Origin: Ectobacillus funiculus
GTDB taxonomy: Bacteria; Bacillota; Bacilli; Bacillales; Bacillaceae_G
Length of the DNA: 24,000 bases
Direction: 5' to 3' (one strand)
Assembly: GCF_042429435.1 (NCBI RefSeq)
Contig: NZ_JBHMAF010000196.1
Position numbers and translations under genes: made by a program. Below are positions 1,111 to 6,067 of the stretch, in pieces (position 1 is the stretch's first letter; the number at the start of each line of letters is the position of its first letter). Under the pieces are notes generated by a model, which made no database searches, was not told where the DNA came from, and saw nothing but the letters and a program-made list of their open reading frames with translations.

Positions 1111-1518
1111 GTGCACACACATGATCGGCGTTCTACTCCATTGTTTCCCATCGGTATTGTCATGAATTTGACGCAGCTGTCCGCCCGCCAGATTCGTTAT
1201 TACGAAGAGCATGATTTAATTTCACCTGTCCGAACTGAGGGCAATCGTCGGCTTTTCTCATTTAATGATGTTGATAAATTGCTTGAAATCAAGGACTTGC
1301 TTGATCAAGGCTTAAACTTAGCTGGTATTAAGCAGGTGCTACAATTGAAAGAGGATACCGAGGCACAGGTGCAGCCTGCTCCAGCAGTGCAGCAGGAAAT
1401 ACCGAAGCAATTGTCTGATGCAGAGTTGCGCAAGCTTCTTCGCGATGAGCTTCAGCAAGCAGGTCGATTTAATCGAACCTCGATGCGCCAAGGAGATATG
1501 TCTCGATTCTTTCATTAA
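1111..1518 (+). CDS. glnR: MerR-family nitrogen regulator GlnR
   Basis: GTG start preceded by AAGGAGGA. The protein is alignable end to end with B. subtilis GlnR ([22 protein letters not shown] ... [10 protein letters not shown]). It lies immediately upstream of glnA. Confidence 0.95.
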
Positions 1519-1574
1519 TATGGGAATTGCTATTTGTTTTACATAAAATGCTAGGGATTAGGAGGAAGGAAACG

Positions 1575-2909
1575 ATGGCAAAGTACACAAAGGATGATAT
1601 TTTTCGTATCGCAAATGAGGAAAATGTAAAGTACATACGCCTGCAATTTACAGATCTTCTAGGCATTATTAAAAATGTTGAGATTCCTGTTAGCCAGTTA
1701 GAAAAAGCATTAGGAAACAAAATGATGTTTGATGGTTCTTCAATTGAAGGATTTGTCCGTATCGAAGAGTCAGATATGTATTTATATCCAGATTTAGATA
1801 CTTGGGTTATTTTCCCTTGGACTCCAGAAAAAGGAAAAGTTGCCCGTTTGATTTGTGATATTTACAATCCAGACGGTACACCATTCGAAGGTGATCCACG
1901 CAATAACTTAAAGCGCATTTTGAAGGAAATGGAAGCGCTTGGATTTACGCACTTCAACCTTGGACCAGAGCCGGAGTTCTTCCTTTTCAAGGTAGATGAA
2001 AAGGGCAACCCAACTCTAGAGCTGAATGATAACGGCGGTTATTTTGACCTTGCGCCAACAGATTTAGGCGAAAACTGCCGACGCGATATCGTGCTTGAGC
2101 TTGAAGAAATGGGATTTGAGATTGAAGCATCTCACCATGAAGTAGCGCCAGGTCAGCATGAAATTGACTTTAAATATGCTGATGCGTTAAAAGCTTGTGA
2201 TGATATTCAAACATTTAAGCTTGTTGTAAAAACAATCGCTCGTAAACATGGTTTGCATGCAACGTTCATGCCGAAGCCGTTATTTGGAGTGAATGGATCC
2301 GGTATGCACTGCAACCTATCCTTATTCCGCGGCAATGAAAATGCATTCTATGATCCAAGCAGCGAATTACAATTAAGCGAAGTTGCCCGTCATTTTCTTG
2401 CTGGTATATTAAAGCATGCAACGAGCTTCACTGCGGTTACAAACCCAACAGTAAACTCGTATAAGCGACTTGTGCCTGGTTATGAAGCACCTTGCTATGT
2501 AGCTTGGTCTGCTCGCAACCGCAGTCCGTTAATTCGTATCCCTGCTTCTCGCGGTTTGAGCACGCGTGTTGAAGTGCGCAGTGTAGACCCTGCTGCAAAT
2601 CCATACTTGGCAATGGCAGTATTGCTTGCTGCTGGTCTTGATGGCATTAAAAATAAAATTGCAGTACCGGCTCCAGTAGACCGCAACATTTATGTGATGA
2701 CAAAATCAGAGCGCGAAAAAGCAGGTATTGTAGACTTACCGGCTACATTGGCAGAAGCGCTCGACAACTTGAAAACAAATGAGGTTATTTGCAACGCGTT
2801 AGGACAGCATTTGCTTGAACATTTCATTGAAGCAAAAGAAATTGAGTGGGATATGTTCCGTACACAAGTTCACCAATGGGAACGCGATCAGTATATGAGC
2901 GTATATTAA
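1575..2909 (+). CDS. glnA: glutamine synthetase type I
   Basis: The real start is MAKYTKDDI at 1575, after GGAGGAAGGA. The tracked ORF start at 1527 is an upstream in-frame extension. The full-length GS-I sequence is present ([33 protein letters not shown]). Confidence 0.97.
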
Positions 2910-3080: not shown

Positions 3081-3500
3081 TATTTCAAGCTTAGCGCATA
3101 GGACTTTCTATTCCTTATATAATATTTTGATATTAAATTAACAGGAAATAAAGTGTGCCAATCAAGGTATGGTTAATGTGTGTTCTCTGCTTCCTTTTGG
3201 GAATTCTTGTCCCTATTGTTTTTTGTTATTACCAGATTACTAGATCTTTTTAGAGGGGTTATCTGTGGCTGAAAAAAAGAGCTATATTGGCCTGCATGGT
3301 TATTATTCAGTCGAGGAGGAGTGTACGAAGGAACCAGTTAAGAGCTTTTGGATAATCGTTTCAGAGTCTAGAAATGCGAGTCATACTGTATAACACCGAA
3401 ATGTTTTCTGCCGCTTCGTCAAAAGAGTCCCTATAAGCGGACTGTGTTCGCGATGGTTGCTTTCTCCCTAGTTCTTTATCCGCTAGGAGAGAGGGCAACT

Positions 3501-3528
3501 AAAAAAGAGACGCTATTTCCAGCGTCTC
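3501..3528 (-). terminator. intrinsic terminator of the zinc-ribbon gene
   Basis: On the minus strand GAGACGCT-GGAAAT-AGCGTCTC is followed by TTTTTT (plus-strand A run 3501-3506). It lies 18 nt past the stop at 3546. Confidence 0.7.
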
Positions 3529-3545
3529 CATCTATTTATTAAAAA

Positions 3546-3767
3546 TCAGCGTAAAAGCAATCCATCAAGAAATTCAGTCTGTAAGGATGCTTCCCCGCAA
3601 TCTTTACAGGTCGTTATTGTAGCGCGGGCGTTGAATACACGGAGCATCTCGAAATCACTAGGATGCCAGCTGCTACACTCATGTTGAGTATTCTTTTCGC
3701 AACTAGGGCAATGTTTCTCCAAAAGCTTAACAGCGGGACTACGTTCAATTATTTTCTCCATTTTCAT
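3546..3767 (-). CDS. hypothetical small zinc-ribbon protein (CxxC...CxxC)
   Basis: 73-aa ORF with SD AAGGGGGA upstream of the ATG and its own terminator. It has two CxxC pairs (CPSC at residues 20-23, CKDC at 54-57). I recognise no family. Confidence 0.6.
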   Translation of the reverse strand: MKMEKIIERSPAVKLLEKHCPSCEKNTQHECSSWHPSDFEMLRVFNARATITTCKDCGEASLQTEFLDGLLLR

Positions 3768-4009
3768 ATTCCCCCTTTGTTTTGTAGCTCTACATTTAGA
3801 TTGTACCTTATTTTAGGACATATGTGATATGTTTTTAGTAAGATTTAGTGACATAAAAAAGAAACTTCATATGTAATTGTCCACTGCTCTTTCATCTGCC
3901 ATAAACATTCTATTATTTATCTTGGGCTGTTTCGTCTTAGGCTGTTCTTATCCAGCTGCCATTTATTCACATGTAATAAGAATATTTAGAAAATTTATAA
4001 TCTTTAGTA

Positions 4010-4038
4010 TTTACAAAATTCGACTTAAGATGTATGAT
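4010..4038 (+). promoter_or_regulatory. candidate sigma-A promoter reading into the tandem 76-nt repeats
   Basis: TTTACA (4010-4015), a 17-nt spacer, then TATGAT (4033-4038). No protein-coding ORF follows. Confidence 0.4.
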
Positions 4039-4044
4039 AAAGAC

Positions 4045-4526
4045 AAGTAATACAAACGAATCAAAAACATCAGAAAAGGATGTGAGTTTAGTAAAATAGA
4101 GAAAGGTGAAATGTACAGGGATGTACATGGGAATGGCTAACCTAACTAAGGAAAAGGTGATTCCAGTGGGATAGAGAAAGGCGAAGTGTGCAGAGGCGCA
4201 CATGGGAAGCAGCCAAGCTAACTAAGGAAAAGGTGATTCCAGTGGGATAGAGAAAGGCGAAGTGTACAGGGATGTACATGGGAAACGGCTAACCTAACTA
4301 AGGAAAAGGTGATTCCAATGAAGTAAGTAAGGCGAAGGTTTAATTACATAGACCGGGTAGGAACCTAGACATGAGTTTTGAACAAATCTCGAGTCAAGGA
4401 GGGGTTCTCTTAAAGAGAAAAGCATGGAAAGGACTTCGAAAAAATGAATGAGGAAATAGTGTAAGCGACCTTGTCACTCCAGTATGGATAGACGAGGTCG
4501 CTTGCTGTCGTTTTATCTGCTTTTTT
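4045..4526 (+). ncRNA. hypothetical GGA-rich small RNA (ends and strand not established)
   Basis: It lies downstream of the 4010-4038 promoter. There are 17 GGA on the + strand between 4078 and 4488, against 4 on the - strand. Hairpins are repeated. A possible 3' end is the 9-bp stem AAGCGACCT/AGGTCGCTT (4463-4503) followed by a T-rich tract to 4526. Confidence 0.3.
4072..4337 (+). repeat. 3.5 tandem copies of a 76-bp purine-rich unit
   Basis: Units start at about 4072, 4148, 4224 and 4300 (period 76). The first 41 nt of units 2 and 3 are identical (AAGGAAAAGGTGATTCCAGTGGGATAGAGAAAGGCGAAGTG). Unit 4 is partial. Confidence 0.9.
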
Positions 4527-4669
4527 GATCCAGTCGCTGCAAGTTTTGTTAGGGGAAGTGCTGTTATTACAATAATTCTCAACTTCATCATCTTAAAAGA
4601 GAAAGCTTCTAAAAATACAATGATTGGCGGTGCTGTAATTACTCTCAGTGCAGTAATGCTTATTCTATA
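4452..4669 (+). pseudogene. C-terminal remnant of an EamA/DMT-family transporter
   Basis: The open frame 4452-4669 has no start context. It ends ...FIILKEKASKNTMIGGAVITLSAVMLIL*, the typical last TM helix of DMT permeases. The N-terminal ~250 aa are missing. Confidence 0.45.
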
Positions 4670-4823
4670 ATGAACGATTTAATTAAGGAGTTCGGACCGT
4701 AAACCTTAGATATCACTATATATTAAGAAGGTTTTTGGCTGTTTTTTTGCTTTTGCATTAAAAAGGGAGGCAATGTATTGTAATGAGCCACATGGTGTAT
4801 ACTAAGAAAAAAGGAAGAATCTA

Positions 4824-5291
4824 ATGATAGGATGTATTATCGCAATCATTGTATTTAATATCGTAGCTTTTAAGCTAAATAAAAGGCTAACAACAAATCA
4901 AGTTGTTCATATTTGGACATTTACAATTGCGTTCCAATGCATCTTTGATTTTATGCTAGAATTTAAATATTATGGTTATTGGTATTTTGACAAAGGGGCA
5001 GATTGGATAGGGATTCTTCCGCATACAGTATTGATTTCACCTGTTAACATGATGTTTTTGAATGGATATCCGTTTGAACATGGAATGAGGAAAAAGATTG
5101 TGTATATTGTTGTCTGGACACTAGGTGCTTTAGTGTATGAAACCATCACGTTACTTCCTGAACCGTGGGGATACTTTCATTATGGGTGGTGGAGATTGTG
5201 GCACGCAGCACTAGTGGATCCTGTACTTTTTTTTATGCTGCTTAAATATTACAAATGGATATGCAAATTAGAAAGGCAAGCTTGTCAGTGA
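4824..5291 (+). CDS. small polytopic membrane protein (resembles CBO0543-type family)
   Basis: 155-aa ORF with SD AAAGGAAG 7 nt upstream. It has 4-5 hydrophobic, Trp/Tyr-rich segments. The family call is tentative. Confidence 0.6.
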   Translation: MIGCIIAIIVFNIVAFKLNKRLTTNQVVHIWTFTIAFQCIFDFMLEFKYYGYWYFDKGADWIGILPHTVLISPVNMMFLNGYPFEHGMRKKIVYIVVWTLGALVYETITLLPEPWGYFHYGWWRLWHAALVDPVLFFMLLKYYKWICKLERQACQ

Positions 5292-5446: not shown

Positions 5447-6067
5447 TTAATGGATATTTCGATATACGCCAATGACTTTTCCGATAATGGAAACGTGTTG
5501 TAAAATAATCGGCTGCAGCGAAGAGTTTTCTGGCTGCAGGCGGAAGTGTTCCGCTTCTTTATAGAAACGTTTTACTGTTGCTTCGTTTTCCTCCGTCATT
5601 GCTACCACAATTTCTCCGTTATTGGCGGATGTTTGCTGGCGAACGACAACGAGGTCGCCATCGAGAATTCCTGCCTCAATCATGCTGTCGCCAGCGATCT
5701 TTAACATGAAAACAGAATCGTTTTCGGGAACTAAATTGGCCGGCAATGGGAAATGCTCGTCAATATTTTCAACAGCTGTAATGGGCGGACCTGCTGTTAC
5801 TTTTCCGATAATCGGAACGTGTACAACGGATTTCATTACGGTGGATGGTCCATCCTCCCCTAATATTTCGATGGCGCGAGGCTTTGTTGGGTCGCGTCGA
5901 ATATACCCTTTTTCTTCTAAACGCGATAAGTGACCATGTACAGTAGAACTAGAAGCAAGACCAACCGCTTGCCCAATTTCACGTACAGAAGGCGGATACC
6001 CTTTTTCTTGTACCTTTTGCTTGATGAAGTTGAGTATATCAAGCTGTCTTTTTGATAGTTTTTCCAT
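5447..6067 (-). CDS. lexA: SOS repressor LexA
   Basis: The real start is [14 protein letters not shown] at 6067, after GAGGTG. The tracked 251-aa ORF is an upstream extension. It has a wHTH N-domain, a VTAG cleavage region, GDSM (Ser) and VKRF (Lys) of the S24 peptidase dyad. Confidence 0.97.

Follow-up and report, generated by a model that had tools for sequence, protein, structure and literature searches.

A family of tandem-module small-RNA genes in Bacillaceae, possibly acting as ribosome-engaging arrays of two-codon mini-genes

Introduction

What might a purine-rich tandem repeat, set between a promoter and a terminator, be recruiting in a Bacillaceae cell? The question is raised by a repeat element at positions 4010-4526 on the plus strand of a 24,000-nucleotide (nt) stretch of Ectobacillus funiculus DNA (assembly GCF_042429435.1, contig NZ_JBHMAF010000196.1), which we refer to throughout as the window. 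A first, sequence-only reading proposed that the element encodes a non-coding small RNA (sRNA) that titrates CsrA by means of GGA motifs displayed in hairpin loops. Comparison with related genomes leads us to conclude that the element is a stand-alone, plus-strand small-RNA gene, presumably transcribed from its own promoter, and that it belongs to a Bacillaceae family not represented in Rfam 15. The parts of the repeat that are conserved look like those of a translation start site, as each module typically carries a strong Shine-Dalgarno (SD) sequence, a start codon and, one codon later, a stop codon. The earlier reading had recognized a real RNA gene but had given it the wrong ligand.

Results

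The module pattern AAGGTGATNCCNNTGN{8,12}AGGCGAAG was scanned across 185,579 species, each represented by one genome. Twelve real Bacillaceae loci were recovered in nine species, namely Peribacillus frigoritolerans, a Metabacillus sp., Halalkalibacter lacteus, Bacillus suaedaesalsae, B. salitolerans, B. pinisoli, Neobacillus pocheonensis, an Ectobacillus metagenome-assembled genome (MAG) and B. fengqiuensis, the last with four loci, and a scan of metagenomes added three more. The other pattern hits, including GC-rich coding sequence in a Bacillales MAG (L055) and single matches mostly in unrelated phyla, were taken as chance on the strength of record titles, the finding of one match per locus and the random expectation for a 20-base pattern, and were not individually inspected. 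Beyond E. funiculus, at least 10 other Bacillaceae have this architecture, and the family spans at least six genera. Promoter, modules, a micro-open reading frame (micro-ORF) and a terminator are common to the family loci and all face one way, and the number of modules per RNA runs from 1 to at least 11. No neighboring gene is conserved beside family members; neighbors are unrelated from species to species, and several downstream genes lie on the opposite strand or have a leader of their own (a T-box in L020). Given that neighbors differ while promoter, modules and terminator stay joined, the comparison identifies the family as a stand-alone RNA gene, neither a generic dispersed repeat nor the leader of a particular gene. 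Searches of the window and of 15 related loci against Rfam 15 at gathering score gave no match over the RNA, a search at E ≤ 10 across 3800-4800 returned nothing relevant, and the family is not described in the literature searched.

The possibility that the 76-nt unit is a dispersed DNA repeat, akin to repetitive extragenic palindromes or miniature inverted-repeat transposable elements, could be ruled out, as the unit is not scattered alone in unrelated contexts. The 24-kb window holds no extra copy, and the unit occurs only within complete promoter-to-terminator copies of the RNA gene. BLAST searches with the window RNA against plasmid and phage collections found nothing, and the modules are absent from the phage collection. 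The family was discovered through a neighbor of the element in the window, a gene for a CBO0543-family protein, when one paralogue of that gene in B. fengqiuensis proved to have an RNA homologue 2.5 kb away. Synteny through this protein is useful for close relatives only, and matches at or below 70% identity are paralogues located elsewhere.

Among E. funiculus strains the flanks of the gene are nearly identical and the number of units differs, with 1.5 units at locus L002, 3.5 in the window, 4.5 at L105 and 6.5 at L001; metagenome contig L090 also has 3.5. Conservation across Bacillaceae and variation in copy number, which the sequence-only reading had put forward for checking, are therefore both found. 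Short-read Logan contigs of related species (L003-L006) break exactly at the RNA terminator or micro-ORF, which a tandem array upstream would explain, and many draft genomes probably contain a collapsed or mis-assembled version of the locus. In B. fengqiuensis, two of the copies (L043 and L059) represent a segmental duplication sharing ~200 nt upstream and have fragments of a Y-family polymerase (dinB/IMS) gene directly downstream, whereas homology at a third (L030) starts only at the -10 element; these copies show no consistent mobile-element boundaries.

A promoter, a variable number of tandem direct repeats and a terminator are also the layout of the type III antitoxin RNAs (ToxIN, CptIN and TenpIN), in which repeats processed into units would inhibit a toxin encoded downstream, and the repeats described here begin with AGGUGAU, as do those of ToxI. 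Nevertheless, this explanation is very hard to credit. The family has no toxin gene or conserved downstream ORF, PADLOC finds no match for the adjacent proteins, the unit of at least 76 nt is about twice the ~34-45 nt of the known families, and single-module members exist.

What the family conserves was determined from 35 distinct modules of ~12 species, which are not independent of one another. Their consensus consists of an A-rich run, the SD sequence AAGGUGAU, NCCA, a start codon (NUG), a single codon (NNN), a stop codon, N(A/U)AGGCGAA, a hairpin and GGG(A/U). The SD sequence is complementary to the 3' end of 16S rRNA and is followed by a 4-nt spacer to the start codon. Taking the 16S 3' end from general knowledge of Bacillus, the SD:anti-SD duplex has a mean energy of -11.5 kcal/mol (range -8.7 to -14.9), compared with -9.5 kcal/mol for the best SDs of genes in the window and -3.6 kcal/mol for background. 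Modules with a changed GGUGAU have a different SD core, such as GGAG or GAGG, in its stead. The start codon is ATG in 19 modules, GTG in 11, TTG in four and CTG in one. A stop occupies codon 3 in 27 of the 35 (TAG 18, TAA 5, TGA 4; TGG does not occur there) and codon 2 in one further module, such that an SD, a start, no more than one sense codon and a stop are found together in 28 of 35. The sequence-only reading was correct in seeing a stand-alone small-RNA gene on the plus strand, but the label non-coding calls for qualification in an RNA with conserved micro-ORFs throughout. We tentatively interpret the RNA as a stand-alone ribosome-engaging array of two-codon mini-genes, an interpretation in which we place appreciable, though less than even, confidence.

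In 34 of the 35 modules the hairpin starts at +20 or +21, counted from the start codon. Its pairs are canonical in 85% of cases, against 49 ± 6% when the 3' arms are shuffled, and none of 5000 shuffles reached the observed value. Three to six pair types occur at each position, indicating covariation. RNAalifold applied to a MAFFT alignment of modules returned no consensus structure; the hairpin sequences are too divergent to align and MAFFT shifted the register of the arms, so pairs were counted in register by script. The plus-strand hairpins contain 20 G.U pairs as opposed to eight A.C mismatches, and the RNA is therefore the plus strand. Were the minus strand functional instead, it would give a pyrimidine-rich sRNA with UCCC loops, similar to RoxS/RsaE or LhrC. 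The reverse complement of the E. funiculus hairpin indeed reads UGUACA-UCCC-UGUACA and the folding z-score is similar (-5.15). However, the promoter and the terminator, each of them conserved, point in the plus direction; on the minus strand the 20 G.U pairs would turn into A.C, lowering canonical pairing from 85% to 79% and weakening the summed hairpin energy from -168 to -147 kcal/mol; the UCCC loops are as unconserved as their GGGA counterparts; and Rfam gives no RsaE match. We regard a functional minus strand as extremely improbable.

Several other candidates for structure or binding were rejected. Judged by eye, a kink-turn has its tandem G.A pairs out of place, and PyrR, TRAP and HutP sites, a GAAA tetraloop receptor and a G-quadruplex were considered in the same way and set aside. 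A likeness of CCAGUGG..GGCGAAGGC to 16S rRNA was dismissed, the CCAGUGG part not being conserved. A helix between the SD and spacer (UGAUNCC) and the tail that follows the hairpin (GGNAUCA) looked compensatory in L010, L013 and L028, but was dropped when cognate pairs (-6.25 kcal/mol) proved no better than non-cognate pairs (-6.24 kcal/mol; p = 0.47).

The invariant CCA spacer, the AGGCGAA box, the hairpin at fixed distance and the GGG are not needed for initiation alone. An alternative is that the modules copy the initiation region and hairpin of some mRNA and titrate a repressor protein or antisense sRNA that acts there, in which case the early stop would merely prevent wasteful translation through the binding site, and an sRNA partner would be complementary to the module sequence AAGGUGAUNCCANUG...AGGCGAAG. 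Because CCA, AGGCGAA and GGG stay unexplained, such an operator mimic is the main rival. The 1.5-6.5 copies in one species and the several loci per genome are as anticipated for a dose-additive sponge, predicted folds pair part of the initiation regions, and a Firmicutes precedent from within the Bacillaceae exists in RosA, which is reported as a sponge RNA for RoxS and FsrA in B. subtilis (PMC8216469), although RosA is neither modular nor repeated. Against this, the RNA has no linked protein gene, no partner emerged as a candidate, and the SD/spacer-tail pairing lacks cognate preference, as noted above. In addition, variation among A, G and U at the start and among UAG, UAA and UGA at the stop fits selection via translation better. 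The conserved GGUGAU and GGCGAA boxes are probably poor complements of the CCCC regions of the RsaE motif in RoxS. On balance, an operator mimic appears unlikely, if still a serious contender.

With the family in hand, the proposal of a CsrA sponge could be assessed. The observations behind it are accurate. A promoter of the sigma-A type is present at 4010-4038; the plus strand is 70% purine, with 23 pyrimidines in unit 3 and stops in all three plus frames; hairpins TGTACA-GGGA-TGTACA (TGTACAGGGATGTACA) lie at 4112-4127 and 4263-4278; GGA occurs 17 times on the plus strand and four times on the minus strand within 4078-4488. The 12-mer GTACAGGGATGT, at 4113 and 4264, matches RUACARGGAUGU at 12 of 12 positions, and this consensus, derived by SELEX, had been quoted correctly (PMC7652899). 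By arithmetic, ~0.011 chance matches to it are expected per 24-kb window, counting both strands. A full E. funiculus unit has four GGA, one of them in a loop within the 12/12 match, the layout of a stand-alone RNA with repeated hairpin modules resembles CsrB/RsmZ, and we estimate that GGGA follows the hairpin in about two-thirds of modules family-wide. On this view, GGA in loops and linkers would draw CsrA away from flagellin and its other targets, lifting their repression.

The comparative evidence nevertheless argues against CsrA titration as the selected function. The GGA count in the predicted transcript, a 67%-purine sequence, is not above composition (17 observed, 14.7 ± 2.6 in dinucleotide shuffles, z = 0.9), and 26 of 2360 other 411-nt windows contain at least 17. 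Twelve homologues from species other than E. funiculus carry no more GGA than expected (z from -1.8 to +0.1; 0.7-2.5 per 100 nt), and the three other E. funiculus loci reach z of +0.4 to +1.5. Across the 35 modules, a GGA in the hairpin loop is confined to E. funiculus, where the loop is itself polymorphic (GGGA, GAGA, GAGG), and even in the window GGA stands in the loop of the hairpins at 4112-4127 and 4263-4278 and not in that of the middle one at 4186-4203. Other loops in the family include GAGA, AGAG, AGAAAC, CGAAAC, AAAUG, AACUG, AAGAC, AUUACA, AUA, AUU, UUCU and others. Since loops vary in this way, the 12/12 match is the product of a conserved stem (GUACA..UGU) and a species-specific loop, and the GGGA loop is one A-to-G transition from the GAGA of the nearest relatives. 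None of the conserved elements, namely AAGGUGAU, NCCA, NUG, the stop, AGGCGAA and GGG, is a CsrA motif, and the Csr/Rsm families of Rfam give no match. The hairpin is also more stable, with a longer stem and a shorter loop, than the ligands that CsrA prefers; it has six to seven contiguous pairs and a tetraloop whereas SELEX ligands mostly have four pairs or fewer and hexaloops (PMC7652899). The known CsrA antagonist of Bacillus is FliW, as the sequence-only reading had stated, and in B. subtilis it acts at near-equimolar stoichiometry. The further remark of that reading that no CsrA-sequestering sRNA has been described in Bacillaceae agrees with the literature searched, where we found none. 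Flagellated members of the Bacillaceae usually possess csrA and fliW. The E. funiculus RNA, rich as it is in GGA, might be bound by CsrA in vitro, but a CsrA sponge is an improbable account of the family.

Downstream of the modules, each RNA ends in a second conserved cassette. In the window this comprises an SD (GAAAGGA, 4427-4433), an ATG at 4444 and the micro-ORF MNEEIV with its TAA at 4462-4464 (cassette 4427-4464, plus strand), followed by an intrinsic terminator at 4463-4526 that is made of an interrupted hairpin (4463-4503) and a U-rich tract (4504-4526). The terminator is an inverted repeat with 19-nt arms, and its hairpin appears in both the minimum-free-energy and centroid folds; its 5' arm begins inside the micro-ORF stop codon. 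All members keep the terminator, which is also present at the contig ends of L003 and L005. In 14 distinct family sequences the cassette has the SD GAAAGGA or GAAAGGG, an AUG or GUG 8-10 nt further on and six to eight codons that end in (E/K)-I-(V/I)-stop, with UAA or UAG as the stop and its position within the first terminator-stem pairs. The peptides are MNEEIV, MSEEIV, MDEEIV, MNEEIIV, MNEKIV, MDIEIV, MDISEIV and MVTQEEII. Differences in length amount to whole codons, and the few substitutions are synonymous or conservative.

The position of the micro-ORF stop inside the terminator 5' arm, a ribosome-occludable arrangement kept in the 14 sequences, raises the possibility of a cis-acting leader or attenuator, in which translation of the micro-ORF controls read-through into the EamA-transporter remnant and CBO0543-family gene downstream. 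The latter lies 170-320 nt downstream in E. funiculus, L003 and L005, and the leader peptide MsrDL provides a precedent. However, the genes downstream differ in every other species, several being on the opposite strand or having their own leader, and what directly follows the RNA in the window is no more than a C-terminal pseudogene fragment. Attenuation of these genes thus seems quite improbable.

A BLAST search with a B. fengqiuensis member matched the terminator cassette alone on two megaplasmids, where modules are absent. On the 362-kb Metabacillus dongyingensis plasmid pBY2G20 (L104, 2335-2580), the cassette (..AAAATAGTATAAGCGACCTTGT...ACAAGGTCGCTTA) closes an annotated hypothetical gene of 44 amino acids (aa), and an overlapping 16-codon ORF also ends in KIV-stop. 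A different addition is seen at the 5' ends of the RNAs at L013 (Metabacillus) and L015 (Halalkalibacter), which carry an extra conserved micro-ORF, METFYET or METFKET, preceded by the perfect SD AAGGAGGU (oriented coordinates ~2030-2075 and ~1165-1205, respectively).

In the window, the predicted RNA is ~465 nt long. TTTACA-17-TATGAT at 4010-4038 (plus strand) is the top promoter-like site within 3500-5200, matching 10 of 12 positions, and its -35, -10 and ACAAG start region are kept in homologues; transcription is predicted to start at ~4045, inside the conserved ..ACAAG. Upstream of the -35, an A/T-rich block resembling an UP element (TAGAAAATTTATAATCTTTAGTA, 3987-4009) is near-identical in the homologues of B. 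fengqiuensis, N. pocheonensis and metagenome locus L076. The 76-nt direct repeat has in-register copies at 4061, 4136, 4212 and 4288, and Tandem Repeats Finder reports 4096-4317 with a period of 76, 2.9 copies and 85% matches. The 18-mers AAGGAAAAGGTGATTCCA and TAGAGAAAGGCGAAGTGT occur three times each, against 0.01-0.02 expected. The 3.5 copies counted originally are in register, although the first unit is degenerate.

This degenerate module (module 0, 4061-4135) has 62% identity to the reference unit and matches the module profile in part. It retains an SD-like sequence (AGAAAAGGA, in the region 4072-4086), an AGGTGAA box (4104-4110), a hairpin with the loop GGGA (4111-4128) and GGG (4129-4131), but no start codon. 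Module 1 (4142-4217) has an SD (AAGGTGAT, 4154-4161), the spacer TCCA, a mini-ORF (4166-4174) composed of GTG (4166-4168), GGA and TAG (4172-4174), an AGGCGAA box (4179-4185) and a hairpin (4186-4203) followed by GGG (4204-4206). The loop of this middle hairpin reads GAGG/AGAG and so lacks GGA, and its stem is preserved by a compensatory change from A-U to G-C relative to modules 0 and 2. In module 2 (4218-4293) the SD lies at 4230-4237, the mini-ORF at 4242-4250 (GTG 4242-4244, GGA, TAG 4248-4250), the box at 4255-4261 and the hairpin, with loop GGGA and the SELEX-like 12-mer at 4264-4275, at 4262-4279, followed by GGG at 4280-4282. The terminal module (4294-4357) is of a distinct type b, with its SD at 4306-4313, a mini-ORF at 4318-4326 (ATG 4318-4320, AAG, TAA 4324-4326), a box at 4330-4336 and the hairpin GGTTTAATTACATAGACC at 4337-4354, then GGG at 4355-4357. 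All family members have a type b module, and the single-module RNAs L010 and L030 are no exception. Between the last module and the micro-ORF is a variable 3' domain (4358-4426) that is kept in the closest relatives only (L050 and L076). Two kinds of ORF call in the array were discarded. A 26-codon ORF at 4371-4451 is not conserved, being 10 codons in L050 and missing from L028, and minus-strand ORFs of 45-78 aa are likewise not conserved, and the 76-nt unit shifts the frame at each repeat; the array yields spurious minus-strand ORF calls.

The element (4010-4526, plus strand) is preceded by glnR-glnA (1111-2909, plus strand) and by a divergently oriented zinc-ribbon ORF of 73 aa with CxxC...CxxC (3546-3767, minus strand), which has weak YnfU/FmdB-type matches. 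It is followed by a 59-codon remnant of an EamA transporter C-terminus (4491-4670, plus strand; Pfam EamA E = 1.4e-4) with no N-terminal part, the CBO0543-family membrane protein gene (4824-5291, plus strand), lexA (5447-6067, minus strand) and, from 6160 on the plus strand, a resolvase-like gene, a DUF896 gene and tkt. The nearest matches to the proteins of the window come from E. funiculus. The EamA remnant begins at the RNA terminator and is kept in E. funiculus L001 and L002 and in metagenome contig L090, whereas L003 and L005, which are more distantly related, lack it; the RNA gene apparently lies within, or took the place of, the 5' portion of that EamA gene. Relative to strain L001, positions ~3108-3486 of the window are a ~380-nt insertion between the glnA terminator and the zinc-ribbon gene. 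The insertion bears two tiny ORFs, a hydrophobic one of 32 aa (3155-3253) and one of 42 aa (3265-3393), for which NCBIfam and PADLOC give no match. A perfect GC-rich hairpin just downstream of the zinc-ribbon gene (3506-3529), terminator-like on both strands, is probably the terminator of that gene. At L013 and L015 the RNA unit contains, or is directly followed by, a same-strand gene for a different small zinc-ribbon protein of ~64 aa, perhaps by coincidence. Rfam matches near other loci, comprising the T-box leader of L020 (3829-4035, minus strand), a ZMP/ZTP riboswitch in L015 (1692-1769, minus strand), and RAGATH-18 and a group II intron fragment in L011 (5469-5534 and 10-94, respectively, both plus strand), overlap no family RNA.

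Discussion

Here, we have described an RNA gene family whose conserved features include an SD, a start and an early stop. If the RNA is an array of mini-genes, a strong sigma-A promoter would drive one to more than 10 modules followed by the micro-ORF and terminator, and each module would act as a complete translation-initiation region opening a two-codon mini-ORF. The ligand of the conserved purine-rich motifs would then be the ribosome and not CsrA. Mini-genes of this kind would load ribosomes and release them at once, with the hairpin at +20/+21 lying just past the point to which a ribosome would extend when it terminates on the mini-ORF, and ribosome occupancy might stabilize the RNA. Translation of the MNEEIV micro-ORF would bring a ribosome to termination on the terminator 5' arm, and could thereby couple translation to the state of the RNA 3' end. 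The RNA may in addition draw in trans on the translation machinery, through initiating ribosomes, release factors or peptidyl-tRNA turnover. The more specific proposal that a highly expressed array titrates initiating ribosomes, release factor or peptidyl-tRNA hydrolase capacity, with copy number serving as the dose, strikes us as rather doubtful. What the sequences show is the architecture of the gene and its conservation, the strand, the covariation of the hairpin, the strength of the SD, the pattern of starts and stops and the differences in copy number; that the gene is transcribed, that its RNA binds ribosomes and is translated, and that it acts in trans are inferred.

Several observations weigh against an array of mini-genes. 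Predicted pairing is slightly higher in the initiation regions than elsewhere in the RNA (unpaired probability of 0.39 compared with 0.48), and these regions are therefore not obviously open. Seven of the 35 modules have no early stop and run for 3-21 codons, the first module of E. funiculus has no start codon, and one module uses CTG. The absence of TGG at codon 3 is marginal, as ~2.7 are expected and the modules are not independent. The invariant CCA spacer, AGGCGAA box and GGG go beyond initiation alone and hint at a further partner. Finally, the terminator cassette stands behind the 44-aa gene on the Metabacillus plasmid with modules absent, and part of the conservation of EIV-stop could therefore act at the RNA level.

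The individual parts of the RNA have precedents in mini-genes, leader micro-ORFs and repeat-bearing sRNAs, but their combination does not. CsrB, CsrC and RsmX/Y/Z are likewise stand-alone sRNAs, from promoter to terminator, with purine-rich hairpin modules in variable number. In CsrB/Rsm-type RNAs GGA is the invariant, enriched element, with 13-22 motifs (PMC6546359), whereas the family described here conserves SD, start and stop, and GGA is neither conserved nor enriched. The closest parallels to the individual mini-ORFs, each with a strong SD, a start, one codon and a stop, are lambda bar, the LEE1 leader of enterohaemorrhagic Escherichia coli, axe-txe mg2 and the start-stops of E. coli. Such two-codon mini-genes with a strong SD are translated, and they can be protective for mRNA or toxic via peptidyl-tRNA drop-off (PMC8708949). 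The known cases are single and are located in the leaders of protein genes or in phage DNA, whereas here one to more than 10 make up the body of a conserved multi-copy RNA and are tied to AGGCGAA, a hairpin and GGG. The 3' cassette resembles MsrDL, a hexapeptide leader ORF beside a terminator (PMC10314930), and ErmCL, in that a six- to eight-codon ORF with its own SD has a stop abutting a Rho-independent terminator. However, the family shows no conserved gene beyond the terminator, the cassette stands at the end of an RNA and not at the start of an operon, and M-x-E-E-I-V has no relation to known arrest peptides.

The history of the locus carries a caution, in that a perfect SELEX-motif match in a single genome needs comparative support. 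There is also a practical consequence, as the array breaks short-read assemblies at the locus. For the Bacillaceae, the family represents a conserved RNA gene, multi-copy in some genomes and variable in length between strains, that neither Rfam 15 nor the literature searched contains. Start-stop and two-codon ORFs are otherwise known as isolated oddities, and an array made of them would offer a clean system for probing their function. If the array does act in trans on the translation apparatus, it would be a ribosome-directed regulatory RNA of a kind not yet described.

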